A stretch of DNA of 42,200 nt from a virus (lineage: Duplodnaviria; Heunggongvirae; Uroviricota; Caudoviricetes), in IMG/VR virus record IMGVR_UViG_2522572164_000007; one strand, 5' to 3'. Under the pieces are notes generated by a model. The model saw nothing but the letters and a program-made list of their open reading frames with translations. It did not search any database and had not been told where the DNA came from. A program made the translations under genes and the position numbers. This document shows, piece by piece, positions 1 to 10,039 of the stretch; position 1 is the stretch's first letter; every line of letters starts with the position of its first letter.

Positions 1-386
1 ATAGCTCAGTGAACCGCCGCAGTTCGGGCAGCACGGCGCCGCAGGCAACAGTCGCTTTTCGTCACGGGGTAGTGATTCAGGGAACGGCTTACGGGTGCGG
101 GTCTGACGCAACGGACGCTGTACTGCCGGGTCATACACCCTACCAGTCAGCGTATCGCTCTCTTTCTGAAGCCGGTTCAGATCGGCTTCCATTTGTGCGA
201 TACGGCGGGAGACTTTTTCGGAACGACTGCCGAAGTTCATCCGGCGGAGTTTATCCAGCTGCGCCTGCAGATGGTCTATTTCGCGCTCCCGGTTGCTCAG
301 CTTTTCCTGCAGGGCGTGGATCAGCGCTTCCTGTTCGGCCAGGCGCTGTTTCAGCAGGAAGATGTCGTCAGAAGAGATGTCGTTCA
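1..386 (-). CDS. tnpC: IS66-family transposase TnpC, N-terminal part (gene runs off the window start)
   Basis: Reverse complement of 1..386 begins ATG at 386 and translates MNDISSDDIFLLKQRLAEQEALIHALQ...CCPNCGG, which I recognise as the IS66 TnpC N-terminus with its zinc-finger motif; no stop before position 1. Confidence 0.8.
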
Positions 387-436
387 TAAGCCCGTATTTT
401 ACCGGGCTTATTCTGTGACAACCAGGATAAAGAGAT

Positions 437-784
437 TTACAGCATGGTCAGGGAGGTCAGCAGCCGCTTGGGCTGTCGCCAGTCGATACCTTCCAGCAGC
501 ATCGCCAGCTGCGCCTGCGTAAGGAACACTTTGCCATCACGGGCTGACGGCCAGGCGAAGCGCCCACGCTCCAGCCGTTTGGTCAGGAGGCACAGTCCGT
601 CACCGGTGGACCACAGCAGTTTAACCTGACTGCCGCTGCGGCCCCGGAAAATGAAAACATGGCCGGACATGGGATCGTCTTTCAGCGCCGTCTGTACTTT
701 CGCAGCCAGGCCGTTGAAGCCATTTCTCATATCGGTGATACCGGCAACCAGCCAAATTTTGGTCCCGGAAGGTAACGGGATCAT
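437..784 (-). CDS. tnpB: IS66-family accessory protein TnpB (Orf2)
   Basis: 115-aa ORF MIPLPSGTKIWLVAGITDMRNGFNGLAAKV...; recalled IS66 Orf2 signature; 4-nt overlap with tnpA as is typical for IS66. Confidence 0.85.
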   Translation of the reverse strand: MIPLPSGTKIWLVAGITDMRNGFNGLAAKVQTALKDDPMSGHVFIFRGRSGSQVKLLWSTGDGLCLLTKRLERGRFAWPSARDGKVFLTQAQLAMLLEGIDWRQPKRLLTSLTML

Positions 785-1182
785 CGCTTCAGTTCCTGTA
801 TCAGCAGAGTCAGGAGCTTTTCGCTGACATTGCCATTGAAGCGGAGCGTCCCGTGCCGGAACGTTACCTCACAGCTGATACTGAGGGTTTCCGGGTCCTC
901 TGCGAGCGATTCTGGCTGTTCGGCAGCTGCATCGAGAGTCACAGGAAGTAGCTGGGGGCTCTCTGAAGAAGGTAATAGCAGCTTTCCCTCACGCAATTGT
1001 TGTCGCCATTTGAACAACAGATTGGCGTTAATGCCATTTTCAAGAGCAAGTTTTGAGATGGATATCCCGGGTTCACAGGAGGCAGCAACGAGCTGCTGTT
1101 TAAATTCGGGAGGATAATTAGGGCAGCCTTTTCGCCTGCCGGGATTCACATTTTTCTGCATATCTGACACTTTGGTTCCCAC
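781..1182 (-). CDS. tnpA: IS66-family TnpA (Orf1), helix-turn-helix protein
   Basis: 133-aa ORF at the expected position and size upstream of tnpB. Confidence 0.75.
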   Translation of the reverse strand: MGTKVSDMQKNVNPGRRKGCPNYPPEFKQQLVAASCEPGISISKLALENGINANLLFKWRQQLREGKLLLPSSESPQLLPVTLDAAAEQPESLAEDPETLSISCEVTFRHGTLRFNGNVSEKLLTLLIQELKR

Positions 1183-1515
1183 TACTTATTTGGTGGACAC
1201 CACTTTGTCTAATTCGTCAGATTCTGACCAGACGGTTCAGGCTGTACGCTTACCACTATTTTATCCCTGTTGAATTTGGTTAAGCCGGTGCAGACGAGCC
1301 GGGAAACGCACATCTGAACCGGCACAATAAAATACAATACAACCCCCTGTTACTGGAGATACGAATGGAATGACGAGGCAGCCTGTCAGTCACAGGGGGC
1401 TGTTGGCATAAAATCAACGGAAAGGCCACCAACACCGGAATTAAGCTCCACAGTCCCCGCACTGGCAATCCATTCCCGGGAAAGGCATTACCGCAAACTG
1501 CTCCGGAGGCAACCA

Positions 1516-1950
1516 TTACAGCCTCAGTAACGGATTATCAGCCCTGGCATCTTCCGACGGCACCTCCTGCCGCCCCCACGCCCTGCTGTATACCCCGGTA
1601 CCGCAGCGTGGGCAGCACTTTTCCCCCTCATAATCTTCGTCACACATCACACAAAACCACTTTCTCACCTTCACCGTATAATCCGGAACCGTCATGCCCT
1701 GCAGATGCAAACGACGGGCCTCTTTCTCTGCCGGGTCAAGCCAGGTACATCGCAGCAGGATTTTTTCAGCGACAGTCATCTGGTCATGTTCAAACCACGG
1801 TGGTTGTCCGTCATTGCCCCGCTGAAGTGTTAACGGGCATCCACAGGACACACAGCACAAAACGTCCTGTCGGTTGTGCTTCGCAGCTTCTTTCGCCGTA
1901 ACAAAATGGCCTTTGCTGTCATTCGCCATATAACAGTTCAGAATTCGCAT
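1516..1950 (-). CDS. Cys-rich hypothetical protein (putative zinc-ribbon), paralogue of the upstream gene
   Basis: ORF 1516..2037 trimmed to the ATG at 1950, which is preceded by AGGAGG. Shares CxxC...PWFEH...C..C...Y.GE..C..C motifs with 1938..2345. Confidence 0.5.
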   Translation of the reverse strand: MRILNCYMANDSKGHFVTAKEAAKHNRQDVLCCVSCGCPLTLQRGNDGQPPWFEHDQMTVAEKILLRCTWLDPAEKEARRLHLQGMTVPDYTVKVRKWFCVMCDEDYEGEKCCPRCGTGVYSRAWGRQEVPSEDARADNPLLRL

Positions 1951-2345
1951 ATTTCCTCCTGAGTTGTCCGGGGAATACTGAATCCTCCGGTCTGGCAGTG
2001 TGTGCAGTACTGCTCCCCATAATAATCGTGGTGACATTGTCTGCAGTGCCAGCTGGCTTTACGCACCACGGGTAAGGCATCCGGTACGAATTGCTGCAGA
2101 CGTTTAATCAACTGTATTTCTCTGCGCTCCGGCCTGACATAAGGGCACTGTTGACCGTGCTCTGTCAGCCTGTCGTCAGTGTGTTCAAACCAGGGAAGTT
2201 CAGTGTCGTATTGCGGATGGTATCTGAGTGCACTGCCACACAAGTGGCAGGTGTAGTTAGCATAAGGTGCGGCCTGTGCAGTACGGGCGCCCGTCAGACG
2301 TCCGTTGCCATCAAGAGCGATAAAGGATTTTGCGTACATAGTCAT
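1938..2345 (-). CDS. Cys-rich hypothetical protein (putative zinc-ribbon)
   Basis: 135-aa ORF with CHLCG...PWFEH...CRQCHHDYYGEQYCTHC; tandem with its paralogue, 13-nt overlap. Confidence 0.5.
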   Translation of the reverse strand: MTMYAKSFIALDGNGRLTGARTAQAAPYANYTCHLCGSALRYHPQYDTELPWFEHTDDRLTEHGQQCPYVRPERREIQLIKRLQQFVPDALPVVRKASWHCRQCHHDYYGEQYCTHCQTGGFSIPRTTQEEICEF

Positions 2346-2598
2346 ATACCTCAGCCGCCAGACGACACGCAGGCAACAGCCGTCCCGGTACGGGCAGCGT
2401 GGTCAGGGTGTGAATGGCGGTTCAGTTAAAATCTGGACTGGAGTTTGGGTAAAGCAGGCTGGTTGCTGTTACAGCACTGTGGTTGTCACACAATGGAACA
2501 CTGACGTAAAAAACAGTCAGTGGGCGAGTGGATACATCGTTGCCGCCAGACAACAACCCATACTTTTGGTTTGCCGGATATTGGCGCGCCAGTCGTGC

Positions 2599-3168
2599 TC
2601 AACTCCGGCTACAGCCAAAATTGCGCTCACCGGTGCAGTGAGCTTTGGTATGCTCCTTCGCCAGATAGTCAGCACGTTCCAGCACCTGCTGAAAGCCGGT
2701 GTCATCATTACGCGCCAGCCACACCGCCGGCCAGGCCGGAAAATGCACCAGCGTGGCATGGCACCCGACATCCACTCCCAGGGCACTGCACCACGCCTGT
2801 TTAATCATCCCGGCCAGAGACTCCGGAGCGCGGTAATCACCGGCACGACACCAGGTATCCCGGTTGACCAGCAGCATCAGGTGATAGTGTTTTTTACCTT
2901 TGCACTCCCCAAACTCCCGGGCCCAGACGTAATGCAGGGTTGTGGGATGCACGCGTTTACCTTCCCGATGCTTACGTTTCTGGTAAGCGTCGATTCGGGC
3001 TTTCAGGGCATTGATGAAGCGGGATATCACAGCTGCGTCCGTTGCTGCCGGTACATCCGGGAGACGCAGGTCAACCCGCAATGCCGTCAGGCGGGGATGA
3101 ACATTCAGTGCGTGCCGCACCGTCTCACGAATACGTTGCTGCCAGAAGGGGTTGTATTTGTAGGTCAT
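2599..3168 (-). CDS. YagK/YfjJ-like (inovirus Gp2 family) protein
   Basis: ORF 2599..3240 trimmed to the ATG at 3168 with a GGAGA RBS; family assignment is from memory of E. coli cryptic-prophage YfjJ/YagK proteins. Confidence 0.45.
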   Translation of the reverse strand: MTYKYNPFWQQRIRETVRHALNVHPRLTALRVDLRLPDVPAATDAAVISRFINALKARIDAYQKRKHREGKRVHPTTLHYVWAREFGECKGKKHYHLMLLVNRDTWCRAGDYRAPESLAGMIKQAWCSALGVDVGCHATLVHFPAWPAVWLARNDDTGFQQVLERADYLAKEHTKAHCTGERNFGCSRS

Positions 3169-3333
3169 GGTTAAATCTCCGTATGGTTCATACGGAATAG
3201 CCACGTATAGCGCGGCGATTTTTTTGATACCGATTTGCATTTCATTTGATACCGCTGAAAAACGCCGATACGCAACTTATTTGATACTAAATCGGCGCTT
3301 TTCTTTTGAGTTTTAGAATGAGTTTTTAAGCGC

Positions 3334-4071
3334 TCATTCACTCTCTTTCAAACCAGTTTTAACTGTTTGTGGTTTTGGGTAAGGGTGGACTTTGAATAGC
3401 TTTGTGTTGAGGCGTTTTCTGGCCCTCTTGTTCAGAAACCGGATGTAACGAAACTGTCGGAACTTATGCACACTGGCTCTGTCGATATTAGCCCTCAGAT
3501 GTTCACCTCGTTGTCCGCCTCGTTTAATGGCACTCCTGCAAATCTCGTGATACCACTCGCCATCAAGTTCATAGAATGTTGATTCATGGCTGCCTACATA
3601 ATCAAAATTGCTGGCCTGATACACGACACCAAGACAGCCACAACGCTCATCTGCAAACGACTGAACCCACTGTACCTGCGGATAAAGCTGCCTGATTAGC
3701 TTGAGCGCGTAACTGATTGCCCTTGATTCGGAGTTTCTCGGCATACAGTCATGCATCCATAGCCGGTTAAGCTCCATATATTCTCGGTTCTGCGTACCCG
3801 TTACGACGCGTGCACCACTGTTTGGGTTAAGGGCGTAACCCCATTGCATTACGCCAACAAGTTCCCGTTCTGAAAATATACCCAGATGAAGGTAGGAATT
3901 ATTTACGAAACGGTGGCTGTAATGTTTATTGACGATAACCAGTCTGGCCAGCCAGCAACTTATTGTCTCAACCCGCAACTCACGGGAGCCATAACCAACG
4001 ATATTGTCGTTATAGCGAATAAGTTCAGGCGTGCTGATGATACGGGATGTGACTTGCTTTCTGTTCCCCAC
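3334..4071 (-). CDS. mom: Mom-like DNA modification protein
   Basis: 245-aa ORF immediately downstream of, and overlapping, a Com-like zinc-finger gene at the far end of a Mu-like genome; size fits Mu Mom (about 230 aa). Start codon uncertain. Confidence 0.6.
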
Positions 4072-4225
4072 GACAGGATTTCCTTGTGTATGTGGGGTGC
4101 TCTGTGGCGCTCGGAGATGTGATTTGATTGAGGGTTTTACAGCGCGGACATTTTACTTCCAGATAACTGAAACTGGCCCGTGCCAGTAGCTTATTGCAGT
4201 GTCGGCACCGTATGTTTCGATACAT
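4025..4225 (-). CDS. com: Com-like zinc-finger translational activator of mom
   Basis: ORF 4025..4270 trimmed to the ATG at 4225 (GGAGG upstream). [30 protein letters not shown] resembles the Mu Com motif IRCKNCNKLL...CPRCK. Confidence 0.7.
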
Positions 4226-4261
4226 GGCCGCATAACCTCCTGCTTTGTTGTTGATGCCTTT

Positions 4262-4450
4262 CTCATGCAATCGATCGACAAAAACGATCGATTCGATTTG
4301 TTTAATTGATACAACAAATAGATTTAAAAGTCATCAACAATGATTCAGGGCGGTGATTATTTACTTAAAGAAACGAAGAGTTAGGTGGTGAAAACGATCA
4401 TAAAATGATCATTTTATTGACTTTTTATACAGTGAAGGTAGGATCGCGCG
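4262..4450 (-). promoter_or_regulatory. com-mom upstream regulatory region with clustered GATC (Dam) sites
   Basis: GATC at 4273, 4286, 4396, 4407 and 4442 (five in under 190 bp), directly upstream of com. Mu Pmom is known to be controlled by Dam methylation of upstream GATC sites that affects OxyR binding. Confidence 0.45.
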
Positions 4451-5358: not shown

Positions 5359-7416
5359 TTATGCCGCAGGGGTATTAACCTCAAGGACAACGCTCTCAAA
5401 AGACACGCCATAAGTTGCCCCTTTGGTGACATCTGTCAGTGTCAGCGTATCTTTGGCAGGGGAAAGTGCATCTTTCACCATCTGGAATGCCTGGCCCGGA
5501 GTGCCATCCAGCACAGGCGTTACCTGGGCACTTCCCGCCGTAAACTTCAGGACAAGTGTATGCCACTGGTTATTGTAGGCTCCAAATGATCCCAGTTTCG
5601 TATTCCCCCCTGTTTTATGGTGCATCAGATTTAACTGGCCGCCTGTTGTCTGGAGATAATACGCCATCAGGAACGGTGTGCCTGTACCACTCATGGTTAC
5701 ACCTTCCGGGACCGTATCGGTGTGGAGGTAAATACCCAGAGCAAACTGGCCTTCTTTTACTTCACCTGACAGACGGAATTTACAGGTCAACTGACCACCA
5801 TGCTTCAGAAGTTCACCGGCTGCATCAGTTCCATGGGTAAGCGTCCAGGTTTTTCCGCTTTGTTTGGATACGGTCAACGCTTTACCTTCGTCCGTCAGCT
5901 GGATTGTACCATCTGTAATTTTCCAGCCCTGAGCCGGGGCTTCTCCTGCTGATGCTTTAAGTGAAAGCAGCGTACGGAGTGACGGGGATGTCGGATGGGG
6001 GGACTCACTGCCTCCTGGCTGACTACCTGTCGGCGCTTCCGGTTTCCCACCCGGCGCGGGCTGAGGCAGGGCTTCACCATCAGGGGCCACACCGGCAATA
6101 AATGCAGAGGTCAGACCTGCATATTTAAGAATTGCTGATGCAAAACGATCTGAGACCAGAAAACGGCGCGCCCAGGAGCTAAAATGGGTTGCCCTGGATG
6201 CTGTTGTCCAGTTGCCATCTCCCCGTGATTCCGCACCATAATACCCGGCAGAAGCGATATCCGGGTCGTGCTCCGGCAGGTTGGTCGCGGTTTTATTACC
6301 GAACTCATCGTGCATCAGTGGAACAAAGTGAATGTTCTCGGAAGCCCGGTTTTTATATCCGCTATAAATGGTTTCATATGCCGCCGGGTTCTTCTCTTTC
6401 CAGTCATAGGTTGTGTCACCACATAACCACGGCACACTGTCTGATGAACCACCAATACACTGACCGGAGAAAGCACCAAGATCCGCACGGAATTTTTTCA
6501 CCATCGCAGTAAACTGGGCACCATGCTGGGCCGGGGTCGCTTTAAGGTCTCCTTCCCCCTGAATCCATACGACAGATAACAGCACATTCTTTGGATTCGC
6601 CTCAAGTGCCGCTTTAGTTCGACTGACAAGATCCTGATACAGTGGGGTATCCACTCCCCAGCGTAGTGACGCCTCGGCTGCACCACTTGCCGGATCGAAT
6701 GAGCCAACTGCGCCGGTTGTAAAAGCAGAGCCGCCACGGGCACAGGGAACCAGTAAAATCCCGGCATCAGCAGGAATCACCGGTAATACTTTTTTCGCAA
6801 TATGAAGTCCCTGCCCCACACAACCATACTGCCCTTTTTTCAGGTCTGCTTTTGGATGGTTCAGCAGACTCATATTCTGAACATCATGAAGGCAGTGATC
6901 TGCTGGAATGATTTCATTGTATTTGCAGGGAATACCTCCGGGGGTTTGTGTATTCCTGCGTGCCAGCTGCATAATACGTGGATCAGGACGATCATAAGAA
7001 TCCGGAAGGGGCAACCCTTCACCATAAGATGAAGCATTGGACTGGCCGGCTATAACAATCACGTAATACCAGGAAGGGGAGCTGGAAGCCGTTTCATTTC
7101 CTGCCGGACGGGTATGTGTTTCTGCATTATCCCAGTCTGACGGTTCAGCAGTACCGGCAACATCAGCACTTAACGGAATGACAGCACCAATACCCGCTCC
7201 GGTAATTTCCACGTTCGGATCACCGGATACTGGCCTTACCCACAGGCAATCCTGTGTATTAAAACTGATGAGACAGTCAGCAAATGTCATTCCTCCTTTC
7301 GTTTCAGCAGGAGGAAAGGGAGCCTCAAGAAATGCCGCTGTACCACCGGAAACTTTAACGGTAAAGTTTCCGGGCATTGATGATAGTTGAACCCATTTGG
7401 ACGTCATAATATTCAT
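5359..7416 (-). CDS. Sialate O-acetylesterase, NanS-p-like (SGNH hydrolase) with extra N- and C-terminal domains
   Basis: 685-aa ORF with YVIVIAGQSNASSYGEG (GQSN block of SGNH esterases); overall architecture resembles the prophage NanS-p esterases of enterohaemorrhagic E. coli. Confidence 0.7.
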   Translation of the reverse strand: MNIMTSKWVQLSSMPGNFTVKVSGGTAAFLEAPFPPAETKGGMTFADCLISFNTQDCLWVRPVSGDPNVEITGAGIGAVIPLSADVAGTAEPSDWDNAETHTRPAGNETASSSPSWYYVIVIAGQSNASSYGEGLPLPDSYDRPDPRIMQLARRNTQTPGGIPCKYNEIIPADHCLHDVQNMSLLNHPKADLKKGQYGCVGQGLHIAKKVLPVIPADAGILLVPCARGGSAFTTGAVGSFDPASGAAEASLRWGVDTPLYQDLVSRTKAALEANPKNVLLSVVWIQGEGDLKATPAQHGAQFTAMVKKFRADLGAFSGQCIGGSSDSVPWLCGDTTYDWKEKNPAAYETIYSGYKNRASENIHFVPLMHDEFGNKTATNLPEHDPDIASAGYYGAESRGDGNWTTASRATHFSSWARRFLVSDRFASAILKYAGLTSAFIAGVAPDGEALPQPAPGGKPEAPTGSQPGGSESPHPTSPSLRTLLSLKASAGEAPAQGWKITDGTIQLTDEGKALTVSKQSGKTWTLTHGTDAAGELLKHGGQLTCKFRLSGEVKEGQFALGIYLHTDTVPEGVTMSGTGTPFLMAYYLQTTGGQLNLMHHKTGGNTKLGSFGAYNNQWHTLVLKFTAGSAQVTPVLDGTPGQAFQMVKDALSPAKDTLTLTDVTKGATYGVSFESVVLEVNTPAA

Positions 7417-7506: not shown

Positions 7507-8067
7507 TTATTTTTCCGAAACGCTCGCAGGATAATAACGATAAAGGGTTGAAAGGCCGATATCAAAAATAAGTGCCACCTGTCTTCGACTGACACCCCCG
7601 GCCAGTAAACGCCCGACCTGCTCGTATTGTTCCTGCGTGAGACGACGGGGTCTGCCGCCGGTTCGTCCCCTTTCACGGGCAGCTGCAAGACCAGCCCGTG
7701 TCCGTTCGACAATTAATTCACGCTCCATTTCTGCCAGCGCACCCATTATGTGAAAAAAGAAGCGCCCCATGGGGGTTGACGTATCAATGTTGTCAGTAAG
7801 ACTACGAAAATTTATCCCCTGTTGCTGTAATTCATCTGTCAGCGCAACAAGGTGGCGCATACTGCGCCCCAGCCTGTCCAGTTTCCAGACCATCAGTGTG
7901 TCACCGGGTTTTAGTTTCTTCAGTGCCCGCTTCAGTCCCGGCCGCTGTGTCGTTTTACCACTCATTTTATCTTCAAAAATCTGCTCACATCCTGCACATT
8001 CCAGCGCATTTCTTTGTAAACCTGTGTTCTGGTCATTTGTTGATACGCGTATATAGCCAATCAGCAT
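7507..8067 (-). CDS. gin: Serine recombinase, DNA invertase Gin/Hin/Pin/Cin family
   Basis: 186 aa; MLIGYIRVSTNDQNTGLQRNAL... is the resolvase/invertase catalytic N-terminus, with a C-terminal HTH (GRPRRL...STLYRY). Confidence 0.9.
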   Translation of the reverse strand: MLIGYIRVSTNDQNTGLQRNALECAGCEQIFEDKMSGKTTQRPGLKRALKKLKPGDTLMVWKLDRLGRSMRHLVALTDELQQQGINFRSLTDNIDTSTPMGRFFFHIMGALAEMERELIVERTRAGLAAARERGRTGGRPRRLTQEQYEQVGRLLAGGVSRRQVALIFDIGLSTLYRYYPASVSEK

Positions 8068-8122
8068 GTATTTACCTTCCTTAAAAAGAGGTGAAAATGC
8101 CTTTTAAAACAGATATACGGCA

Positions 8123-8148
8123 TCCCTGAAACCTCGGTTTACGGGATA
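8123..8148. other. gix-like recombination site (gin-proximal boundary of the invertible segment)
   Basis: Core AAACCTCGGTTTAC at 8129..8142 matches the Mu gix core as I recall it (TTATCCAAAACCTCGGTTTACAGGAA). Confidence 0.6.
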
Positions 8149-8492
8149 CTGTAAACAGGGCCGCGAATGCCCTGCCATCGAACGGAGCGGCTGTTGCAGC
8201 GAATAAACTCGCCACTCCAAGAAATATTAATGGTGTCCCATTTGACGGAACGCAGGATATAAATATTACATCGGGGATGACGCAGTCTGTGGCTGACTCA
8301 CGTTATGTTCAAAGCATTCGAAGAGGTTCAAGGTCAACGATTGGAATGCAATATAATATTTTTGAGGTTCCTGACGGATGCGTACTTACAGGGCTTGATG
8401 TCGCTGGTGATGGTAATGCAACGGTAACCGCATATTATCGACCTGTTCAGTTTCTGATAGATGGTTCGTGGAAAACAGCTTCCAGCGCATAA
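8130..8492 (+). CDS. Silent alternative tail-fibre C-terminal cassette (S'v-like; promoterless in this orientation)
   Basis: Open frame from the gix site to the stop at 8492; NLGLRDTVNRAANALPS...[23 protein letters not shown] parallels residues of the expressed fibre, then a divergent C-terminus. Confidence 0.6.
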   Translation, partial: NLGLRDTVNRAANALPSNGAAVAANKLATPRNINGVPFDGTQDINITSGMTQSVADSRYVQSIRRGSRSTIGMQYNIFEVPDGCVLTGLDVAGDGNATVTAYYRPVQFLIDGSWKTASSA

Positions 8493-8571
8493 AAGTGCAG
8501 TAGTTCAAAAAACAGATTATCTGAATAAATATATGATGATTTTGTCTTTTCAACAAAAACAAGGTGAAATA

Positions 8572-9093
8572 ATGGAGCTTATTAACGTAAAACGATATTA
8601 CCCGGAACACAAACCCTATGGTGAGGATGTTCAGTATTTCCAGAGTGAGGACGGAAGGGATTTTTATGAATCTATCCCGCTTTTCACAAAGAAATACAAA
8701 CTCTGTATTTCGCCTGTAACGGGTATTATCTGCTCTGTTGCTGAAGATGTCTCTGCTTTATATCCGGCAGGTTTTACTGTTGTTGAAGTGGACGAACTGC
8801 CGGAAGGTGTGAATATTGACGGTAACTGGCAGTTTTCTGATGGCCTGATATCAAAGGTGCCGGTAAACTGGAAGACGGTTGCTGAAAAGCGTCGCTCATC
8901 GCTGCTCCAGGAAGCCAACGAAACCGTGGATGACTGGAAAACAGAATTAAAACTGGACATGATTAGCGATGAAAATAAATTACAGCTGACGCGCTGGATG
9001 GCGTATATCCGACAGCTTAAAGAAATGCACTTTAATGATATTGCCAGTGAGGGGCATTACCAGGCGATTCCCTGGCCGGAAAAACCGGAATAA
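8572..9093 (+). CDS. Tail fibre assembly protein (U'-like)
   Basis: ORF 8461..9093 trimmed to the ATG at 8572 with an AGGTG RBS; C-terminus ...IPWPEKPE resembles the conserved Tfa C-terminus. Confidence 0.65.
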   Translation: MELINVKRYYPEHKPYGEDVQYFQSEDGRDFYESIPLFTKKYKLCISPVTGIICSVAEDVSALYPAGFTVVEVDELPEGVNIDGNWQFSDGLISKVPVNWKTVAEKRRSSLLQEANETVDDWKTELKLDMISDENKLQLTRWMAYIRQLKEMHFNDIASEGHYQAIPWPEKPE

Positions 9094-9127
9094 TTCAGAG
9101 GGTGCATTCAGCACCCTTTTCTGTGGT

Positions 9128-10039
9128 TTACACTGAACTTACCGTTCTCCAGGCATTATTAATATAAATCTGAACCGGGCGATAATAGACCCCACCGATA
9201 TTGTCCGCAGACCGGGAGCCGGTTTCCTGCACGTTAATACCGGAAAGCATACAACCGGAAGGTGCGCTGTAATTCCATGATATTTCATTGCCTCCGGGTG
9301 AATGATAGCTCTGTGCTCCAAGCTGAACATTCTGTACATACCGGCCATCTGCGGTTGACTGCGTCATTCCTGACGTGATGTTGATATCCTGCGTTCCGTC
9401 AAAAGGAACGCCATTAATATTTTTTGGGGTGGCGAGTCTGTTTGCTGCCACGGCGGTTCCACCCGATGGCAGGGCATCAGCAGCCTTATTTACCGTTTCC
9501 CGTAAACCGACGTTATCGATAAAAGCGCCTTTATCCGGAATGTCTGCGCCATTCTGGTCCCTGCGCAGGTAACGGTTATCACCTTCGCTCTTGCTGTAAA
9601 CATCCAGATTATTACGGGCGGTTCCCTTATTCTCCAGGTCGGCGAGATTCTGATCCTTCGCCAGGGCATTAACGTCACCGGGACCAAGACTGTTTTTTGT
9701 GGCAAGCGTCCCCAGACCAAGATAACCACGGGCCAGACGCTGGGCCTCCGCACCGGCATCAGCAATTTCTTTCAGGTTATTTTTCCGGGAAAAAGCATTC
9801 GCAGCGATAATGGCTTTAATAGACAGCGTAAGCTGGTTTAACTGCGCCTTATCCGGCTGAATACTGGCTTCAGCCAGAATATTCAGCAGTTCGGCCTGGA
9901 GAATATTCAGCCAGTCCTGACCAATCCAGCTGATACCTTTTTGTCCGTCACCTTCGGTAAACCAGGTGGTGGTATTACTCTGCGCCGGTGCCAGCGCAGG
10001 CATATTCGCCACGCCGGAATTATTATCAACATGGAACAT
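9128..10039 (-). CDS. Tail fibre protein (S-like; constant part plus the currently expressed variable C-terminus)
   Basis: ORF 9128..10093 trimmed to the ATG at 10039, which overlaps the upstream stop by 1 nt; contains the second gix site; last gene of the tail operon. Confidence 0.7.
9493..9518. other. gix-like recombination site inside the tail-fibre gene
   Basis: Reverse complement reads AACGTCGGTTTACGGGAAAC, sharing TCGGTTTACGGGA with the site at 8123..8148 in inverted orientation. Confidence 0.55.

Follow-up and report, generated by a model that had tools for sequence, protein, structure and literature searches.

Positions 1516 to 3168 of the virus record IMGVR_UViG_2522572164_000007 (a stretch of 42,200 nt, here called the window) hold a head-to-tail trio of genes on the minus strand: a gene for a YagK/YfjJ-like HUH protein, followed by two overlapping genes, ZR1 and ZR2, for putative zinc-ribbon proteins. 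We found that this trio is a reduced copy of the backbone module of CP4-57/SRL-PAI-type genomic islands (SRL PAI, Shigella resistance locus pathogenicity island), lying at the edge of variable cargo, and that it is almost certainly island backbone rather than part of the Mu-like prophage next to it. Our overall interpretation, to which we give slightly less than an even chance, is that the trio is a trimmed island core module in which the ZR pair acts in island regulation or DNA processing. The genes and the two sequence elements between them are as follows.

1516-1950, minus strand: ZR2, 144 aa, with a RefSeq-style start at 1950 and a GGAGGA Shine-Dalgarno sequence (longest open reading frame, ORF, 1516-2037)

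1938-2339, minus strand: ZR1, 133 aa when read from MYAKSF, the consensus start of the family; its N-terminus, MYAKSFIALDGNGRLTGARTAQ, is nearly invariant (longest ORF 1938-2345)

2380-2397, minus strand: near-invariant element CTGCCCGTACCGGGACGG (CTGCCC-N4-8-GGGACGG), 40 nt upstream of the ZR1 ATG and a candidate for either an operator or a leader hairpin

2499-2522, minus strand: hairpin CACTGAC-TGTTTTTTAC-GTCAGTG located 76 nt past the HUH stop in the HUH-ZR1 spacer; its 10-nt loop is T-rich

2599-3168, minus strand: YagK/YfjJ-like HUH gene, 189 aa, the most upstream of the trio, with its ATG at 3168

The spacer between the HUH gene and ZR1 measures 259 nt, and the ZR1 stop and ZR2 start overlap by 13 nt (ATGCGAATTCTGA).

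The assignment to an island rests on a comparison with prophage-free genomes. Positions 1-3206 of the window match Escherichia coli 55989 at 3205/3206 bases, the sole mismatch (position 995) lying inside an insertion sequence of the IS66 family, and the ZR1, ZR2 and HUH genes agree with that strain at every base. Strain 55989 carries no prophage at this place, and the match ends at 3206; from 3207 onwards the window matches features annotated as 'inserted Bacteriophage Mu-like phage' (starting at 3205/3206), which puts the insertion point 38 nt upstream of the HUH ATG. The block consisting of the IS66 end, ZR2, ZR1 and the HUH gene was present in 1877 of 5426 complete E. coli genomes, and the HUH-Mu junction in none of the 5,426, so that the insertion is strain-specific; in other strains the end of the Mu-like phage adjoins other genes. 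No ZR1 homologue occurred among 50,697 phage records, and only 4 loci with one were found in the 2.9 million contigs of IMG/VR. A further 33 plasmid records contain ZR1, several of them chromosome-sized.

The identity to a prophage-free strain, the 1877 genomes that hold the block with no junction, and the scarcity of ZR1 in phage records thus identify the trio as resident island DNA. They also refute the notion that the Mu-like prophage imported these genes or counts them among its accessory (moron) genes, which has proximity alone in its favour (the prophage end is 38 nt and mom 165 nt away from the HUH ATG): the sequence runs on to 3206 as it does in prophage-free genomes, the Mu-like phage is found within other genes elsewhere, and the trio does not belong to the gene content of a Mu-like prophage as judged by position between the Mu ends and by homologues in phages. 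The nearness of the trio to mom is an accident of Mu transposition, and IS66 and Mu are later, unrelated secondary insertions.

An earlier note on this DNA, made from the letters alone, had placed the trio just outside the right end of the prophage with an IS66 element on its other side, and both neighbours are where it put them (the Mu-like end begins at 3207; tnpB at 437-784, tnpA at 781-1182, repeat end at 1253). Its question whether the genes belong to the prophage or to a separate islet can now be answered in favour of the islet. The distance of about 165 bp that it gave between the YagK/YfjJ-like gene and mom is right (165 nt to the mom stop codon at 3334), but the gene faces mom with its start and not, as stated there, with its end. 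Its reading of the genes as accessory cargo between mobile elements survives in part: they are accessory, borne on a mobile element and not housekeeping genes, with homologues situated in islands across at least six Enterobacterales families, but they form backbone rather than cargo, with an HUH gene upstream in nearly every testable locus (see below).

The backbone character of the trio emerged from a synteny sample of one locus per species (51 loci from the Enterobacteriaceae, Erwiniaceae, Yersiniaceae, Hafniaceae, Budviciaceae and Pectobacteriaceae), in which ORFs were scored with purpose-built profiles. A same-strand HUH gene was found upstream of ZR1 in 34 of the 35 testable species loci, and a second ZR gene after ZR1 in 27/40, with a modal overlap of 13 nt, as in the window. 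Further on, 12/40 loci carry a degenerate HUH-like gene, whose product (PIRSF/Pfam UCP030791, weakly YagK_YfjJ_C, 'inovirus-type Gp2') retains neither the two histidines nor the C-terminal YxxK. Because both the His-x-His and the YxxK are gone, this paralogue appears catalytically dead; examples, usually followed by a DUF2913 gene, are found at 8839-9474 of locus L018, 8909-9457 of L022 and 7900-8466 of L066. AlpA is encoded in 24 loci, often between the HUH gene and ZR1 and in some upstream of the HUH gene. In its canonical form the module runs from an HUH nickase (YagK/YfjJ) through AlpA, ZR1, ZR2, degenerate HUH and DUF2913 to variable cargo; upstream and divergent from the module lie genes for a 320-aa protein, a YeeP-type GTPase, a DUF932 protein and a WYL regulator.

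Individual loci show how the module is placed. In the Citrobacter loci (L002-L007) it stands between an arm with YeeP, DUF932, antirestriction, RadC and CbeA genes and Dpd defence cargo that follows directly after it. These loci also hold, at 8022-8944, a second, more divergent ZR gene (125 aa) behind a 177-aa protein with no Pfam match, not behind an HUH gene, so that two ZR-containing sub-modules occur there in tandem. On the Klebsiella pneumoniae IncFIB/IncHI1B plasmid NZ_CP110517.1 (73958-84113, locus L066), the Prokaryotic Genome Annotation Pipeline (PGAP) lists an inovirus Gp2 family protein, AlpA, two ZR proteins, an inovirus-type Gp2 and DUF2913, and then a resistance-nodulation-division (RND) efflux operon that bears a resistance-gene flag; the full module on this plasmid indicates that it also moves on large resistance plasmids. 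In E. coli K-12, yagK and yfjJ fill the same slot with no ZR genes, and the defence genes AbpAB and RnlAB come after yfjJ.

The gene order in 55989 matches a described island. It reads fecIRABCDE, insertion sequence (IS) remnants, an esterase-like gene, IS66, ZR2, ZR1, HUH, a frameshifted ORF, Hha/YmoA, a small helix-turn-helix regulator, IS1, a fimbrial remnant and gntP-uxuAB. The ORF table of the Shigella flexneri SRL PAI lists an esterase-like orf34, IS66 as orf35-37, orf38 with 'no similarity', orf39 as YfjJ-like/inovirus Gp2, orf40 as Hha, orf41 as Vis/AlpA and orf46 as YfjP/YeeP (PMC6980539). This shared order marks the segment as a known island type, in which the ZR proteins probably correspond to orf38 and the HUH gene to orf39; ever since the SRL PAI was described, 'hypothetical' has been the label of the ZR genes. 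The CP4-57/SRL-PAI-type backbone synteny, with genes for AlpA, a YeeP/YfjP GTPase, DUF932, a WYL regulator, antirestriction, RadC and CbeA/CbtA, was thus seen in the Citrobacter loci, in the 51 species loci and in 55989, with the window showing its IS66 side only.

The copy in the window is shorter than the canonical module, and it may be that in this strain the trio is a decaying, non-functional island remnant that is merely carried along, which we consider rather unlikely. Its degenerate HUH and DUF2913 genes are absent and left no trace: tblastn over window positions 1-1600 returned no UCP030791 remnant, and no alpA remnant was found in the spacer between the HUH gene and ZR1. The IS66 element ends 262 nt downstream of ZR2; Mu, inserted 38 nt upstream of the HUH ATG, has displaced the upstream region by a prophage of ~39 kb; the island around the trio in 55989 is rich in IS fragments and pseudogenes; and ZR1 is fragmentary in 8/49 species loci. 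All three frames are nevertheless intact and identical to those of 55989 and the listed O104:H4 genomes, and ZR1 retains its own upstream element and Shine-Dalgarno sequence, so that the Mu insertion need not silence ZR1-ZR2.

The two ZR proteins are paralogues (31% identity over 125 residues, E = 2e-15), in line with the earlier note, which had described them as adjacent, overlapping and diverged genes sharing a cysteine motif. It had been unable to assign them to a family, and here the profiles gave a clear answer: ZR1 matches the Pfam families DUF7828 (PF25165; 107.5 bits, E = 2.8e-31) and Zn_ribbon_11 (PF11682; 35.3 bits, E = 8.6e-9), and ZR2 matches DUF7828 (105.1 bits, E = 1.5e-30) and Zn_ribbon_11 (66 bits, E = 2.3e-18), all far above the gathering cut-offs of 25.7 and 24, respectively, with the domains in this N-to-C order in both proteins. 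RefSeq names exist as well, the 55989 proteins WP_000270971.1 (ZR1) and WP_001221614.1 (ZR2) being called 'putative zinc ribbon protein' or 'zinc-ribbon domain-containing protein'. In an alignment of 61 sequences (residue numbers follow the 135-aa ZR1 ORF), C36, P51, F53, H55, C67, W99, C101, C104, G110, C114 and C117 are invariant and C33 is at least 90% conserved. The resulting ligand pattern, CxxC...PWFEH...C followed by CxxC...CxxC, corresponds in our reading to a C2HC-type site and a C4 zinc ribbon, so the paired zinc modules proposed earlier are a reasonable description, and we infer that ZR1 and ZR2 are, very probably, real zinc-binding proteins. The zinc-finger-like domain at the N-terminus of CoiA, whose pattern is CxxC...HFxH...C, may be a lead for the first of these modules.

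Selection has kept these genes as coding sequences. The ratio of non-synonymous to synonymous substitution rates (dN/dS) was ~0.13 for ZR1, 0.26 for ZR2 and ~0.2 for the HUH gene, with dS saturated for most pairs; the pair with E. ruysiae (dS 0.45) gave a dN/dS of 0.17. This purifying selection, together with homologues in at least six Enterobacterales families, indicates that the trio consists of genuine genes, not chance ORFs. ZR1 is the better-conserved paralogue of the two. Its AlphaFold2 model (mean predicted local distance difference test score, pLDDT, 79.5) consists largely of beta-hairpins with two short helices, and a structure search with it matched no known fold; a sequence search of solved structures with the proteins of the trio gave no match either.

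The ZR family is narrow and confined essentially to the Enterobacterales. A profile search of 1.84 billion cluster representatives recovered 245 ZR relatives, of which the 150 listed are all at most 238 aa long and thus offer no remote homology link; those inspected carry no effector domain. NCBIfam had no match for any of the three proteins, and Pfam scans of the ZR proteins (to E = 0.1, and to 10 for the N-terminal domains) returned only DUF7828, Zn_ribbon_11 and sub-threshold generic ribbons or DUF7830. Some relatives differ in architecture: P0042 (11 members) naturally joins ZR1 and ZR2 in a single ORF, P0262 combines a pair of DUF7828 domains with one ribbon, and P0036 is a ZR1/ZR2 chimera. 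The P0042 fusion and the doubled DUF7828 of P0262 suggest that the ZR domains work together. A Gp2-ZR2 fusion, P0125, was rejected as a Rosetta-stone link because it is a one-off deletion product.

The product of 2599-3168 is an HUH (Rep-like) endonuclease of the 'inovirus Gp2' family, by its conserved motifs and fold. As the earlier note had recognized, it is YagK/YfjJ-like (Pfam YagK_YfjJ_C, E = 6e-48), with REP_ORF2-G2P detected below threshold, and it contains the motifs ALRVDL, K-HYH-LMLLV and YLAKEHTK. Among 46 homologues, H94-Y95-H96 is at least 90% conserved and Y168, K171 and K175 are invariant, and the 189-aa protein has the HUH/Rep nuclease fold. It is predicted to be, most likely, an active single-domain nickase of single-stranded DNA. 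In PHROGs the sole match of the trio was that of this protein to a family of unknown function. The HUH genes upstream of ZR1 (L002-L058) fall into three mutually unalignable subfamilies beside a ZR1 that is still 60-90% identical, which implies either modular shuffling or a nickase that evolves much faster than ZR1.

A third conserved component is the element at 2380-2397. The sequence CTGCCC-N4-8-GGGACGG could be aligned in 22/22 distinct sequences examined, and its exact form occurred in 42/66 loci, each of these having a single copy, invariably placed a short way before ZR1, and no other in its flanks (for example at 9948-9964 of L002, 7949-7966 of L015 and 6942-6959 of L066); the window holds 1 copy, against 0.02 expected by chance. 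The element tracks ZR1, not the HUH subfamily, and has no match in Rfam. The spacer hairpin at 2499-2522 was rejected as a general nick site, since it is conserved only in Escherichia/Shigella loci. We also noted a 14-nt direct repeat on the minus strand, TGT(C/T)GTCTGGCGGC, at 2354-2367, just upstream of the ZR1 Shine-Dalgarno sequence, and at 2542-2555, just past the HUH stop.

In the mechanism that we propose, ZR1 and ZR2 would be co-produced by translational coupling and would form a zinc-binding hetero-oligomer. The 13-nt overlap suggests the coupling and makes a hetero-oligomer probable, and we judge the chances for and against a ZR1-ZR2 complex to be evenly balanced. The pair would then be a sequence-specific nucleic-acid-binding factor whose target is the CTGCCC-N4-8-GGGACGG element before ZR1, as DNA or as mRNA leader; binding of nucleic acid at this element is possible, with the balance tilting somewhat against it. 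As a switch or adaptor, the pair may finally tune or license AlpA-dependent excision control and HUH-initiated rolling-circle replication or mobilization, and a functional tie of this sort to HUH-driven DNA processing is the most tentative of these steps. The ZR pair would be neither a phage gene nor a defence effector.

Several observations weigh against this proposal. The divergence of ZR1 does not follow that of the HUH protein (Spearman -0.11), which speaks against a specific ZR-HUH protein contact, and in Shigella flexneri (L034) ZR1 is 89% identical to the window protein beside an HUH of a different type. The lack of correlation and the unalignable HUH types together indicate that ZR1 is not co-evolving with the nickase, and our initial idea of the ZR proteins as a dedicated nickase subunit was weakened by this. 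The same pattern speaks for the element as target: since ZR1 is conserved while the HUH subfamily changes, its conserved partner is more likely the invariant element than the HUH protein. Also against the proposal, the HUH protein does not require the ZR genes, because yagK and yfjJ of K-12 have none downstream, and here the HUH gene at least may be silent because the Mu insertion cuts off its upstream region. The isoelectric points of ZR1 (6.7) and ZR2 (6.9) are close to neutral (family medians 8.0 and 7.5), and strong DNA binders are usually more basic. As for the element, RNAalifold folds it as a hairpin with a bulged A but with no base-pair covariation; it could instead be a promoter element, or be bound by AlpA or a host factor, and a consensus scan of the region for sigma-70-like promoters found none. 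Searches of the literature returned no functional papers or experiments on these proteins.

Part of the same evidence could be accommodated if the ZR pair were small zinc-finger island regulators like Ogr/Delta or Com, autoregulated via the leader element and independent of the HUH protein, whose adjacency would reflect no more than a shared 'control region' slot next to AlpA. Small cysteine-rich proteins beside the regulator AlpA, a near-invariant element 40 nt upstream of ZR1, a ZR1 conservation that is independent of the HUH subfamily and near-neutral isoelectric points, which suit protein- or RNA-binding regulators, are all as such a scheme would have them. However, the Pfam scans brought up no profile of Ogr_Delta, Com or another regulator family, the ZR1 model had no structural match, and the near-obligate HUH gene upstream (34/35) would be left unexplained. 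We therefore regard this alternative as possible but unlikely, though the likeliest of those considered here.

The position of the module next to cargo raises another alternative, namely that the ZR genes, alone or together with the HUH gene, form a self-contained cargo cassette of the island, serving anti-phage defence or anti-defence or resembling a toxin-antitoxin system; a defence role had also been among the suggestions of the earlier note. The neighbouring cargo is indeed often defensive (Dpd in Citrobacter, type I restriction-modification in other loci, AbpAB/RnlAB after K-12 yfjJ), and defence systems are also found in related Pseudomonas islands whose cores include AlpA and a Gp2-like gene (bioRxiv 10.1101/2024.08.29.610337). 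Against PADLOC-DB v2, however, the only match was that of PDC-S64 to ZR2 (E = 0.083), with none for ZR1 or the HUH protein; the trio is conserved backbone while the adjoining cargo varies; both ZR proteins are paralogues with no enzymatic domain; and their short relatives described above (150 listed of 245) offer no effector domain among those inspected. The defence suggestion is thus not supported, and we consider such a cassette improbable.

Returning to the proposal of a core module acting in island regulation or DNA processing, a broader form of it would make the HUH nickase, ZR1-ZR2 and CTGCCC-N4-8-GGGACGG an as yet unrecognized replication or mobilization-control unit common to a large class of enterobacterial islands, a speculative extension that we think unlikely. 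In that unit the ZR heterodimer, as a sequence-specific switch, would give licence for the island DNA to be processed or to hitch-hike on helper plasmids or phages. Islands of this class ferry defence systems, type VI secretion systems, restriction-modification systems and RND-efflux resistance cargo. As sequence objects the genes and the island type are already known and do not amount to a new discovery, because there are Pfam families and RefSeq names for them, they probably are ORFs of the SRL PAI, and the block occurs in about a third of complete E. coli genomes. Yet the HUH-(AlpA)-ZR-ZR module and its near-invariant element rank among the best-conserved portions of those tRNA-associated islands by which cargo for virulence, defence and resistance is spread through the Enterobacterales. 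If it were true that the module is a replication, mobilization or control unit, this would account for how a very common class of islands has spread, and offer a handle to track or block it; the conserved module with its cis element is in any case a reasonable lead for island biology.

Around the trio, the window contains the following features.

1..1253, minus strand: partial IS66-family element with a tnpC fragment, tnpB (437-784) and tnpA (781-1182), identified by Pfam TnpB_IS66 and HTH_Tnp_1 and by the RefSeq annotation of the identical 55989 copy; its 22-nt terminal inverted repeat GTAAGCGTACAGC... ends at 1253 (position 14054 of L001), 262 nt past the ZR2 stop

1342..1360, minus strand: putative terminator-like hairpin downstream of ZR2, a consensus match only, from a scan of the identical L001 sequence (14161-14143); it sits inside a larger 17-nt inverted repeat (1339-1355 / 1387-1403)

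3207..3303, minus strand: right end of the Mu-like prophage, outside the trio

3334-4071: mom (Pfam Mom)

4025-4270: com (Pfam Zn_ribbon_Com)

The prophage end has three ...TTTGATAC repeats (3215-3287), which look like transposase-binding sites, and a terminator-like inverted repeat (3257-3303) before mom. The remaining window encodes homologues of Mom, Com, MuA and MuB (Pfam Mom, Zn_ribbon_Com, Mu transposase and MuB). Slightly more than 1 kb past com, a prophage ORF on the minus strand (5359-7416, 685 aa) combines a SASA-type carbohydrate acetylesterase domain with DUF6645, and may encode a receptor-modifying or tail-associated enzyme.

Among known systems, the nearest counterparts of the HUH gene are yagK (CP4-6) and yfjJ (CP4-57) of K-12, which share with it the YagK_YfjJ_C domain, an island of the P4-integrase/AlpA type and a position at the cargo edge; they differ in having no ZR genes downstream and in encoding proteins of 208 aa, compared with 189 aa in the window. 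Set beside other HUH initiators and nickases (Ff gpII, by family name; SIRV1 ORF119; the nuclease domains of parvovirus NS1 and adeno-associated virus Rep; RepB of pMV158; Helitron Rep), the window protein is one small domain with neither a helicase nor an oligomerization domain, and its sequence identity to solved structures is 10-17%.

At the level of the island, to our knowledge no transfer route is known for the enterobacterial elements. Pseudomonas islands built on a core of intY, alpA, RadC, YqaJ and an 'inovirus Gp2-like' gene bear defence cargo, and a jumbo phage transduces them (bioRxiv 10.1101/2024.08.29.610337). Like the enterobacterial islands they combine an AlpA and Gp2-like HUH core with adjacent variable, often defensive cargo, but no ZR-type genes have been reported in them and they belong to another host clade.

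For the ZR pair itself, Ogr/Delta and Com provide a functional analogy only. Delta (P2/P4) is a tandem duplication, and Com of Mu binds an mRNA leader hairpin. Like these, the ZR proteins are small cysteine-rich zinc proteins on mobile elements, with the tandem Delta recalling the ZR1-ZR2 tandem pair, but they are twice as large, have two different zinc modules and show no sequence or profile similarity to them; the com gene of the window (4025-4270) is likewise unrelated to the ZR genes. The closest known proteins are thus those of the island itself, the DUF7828 plus Zn_ribbon_11 proteins of 55989 in RefSeq, which have the same domain pair and do not differ in sequence from the ZR proteins of the window.

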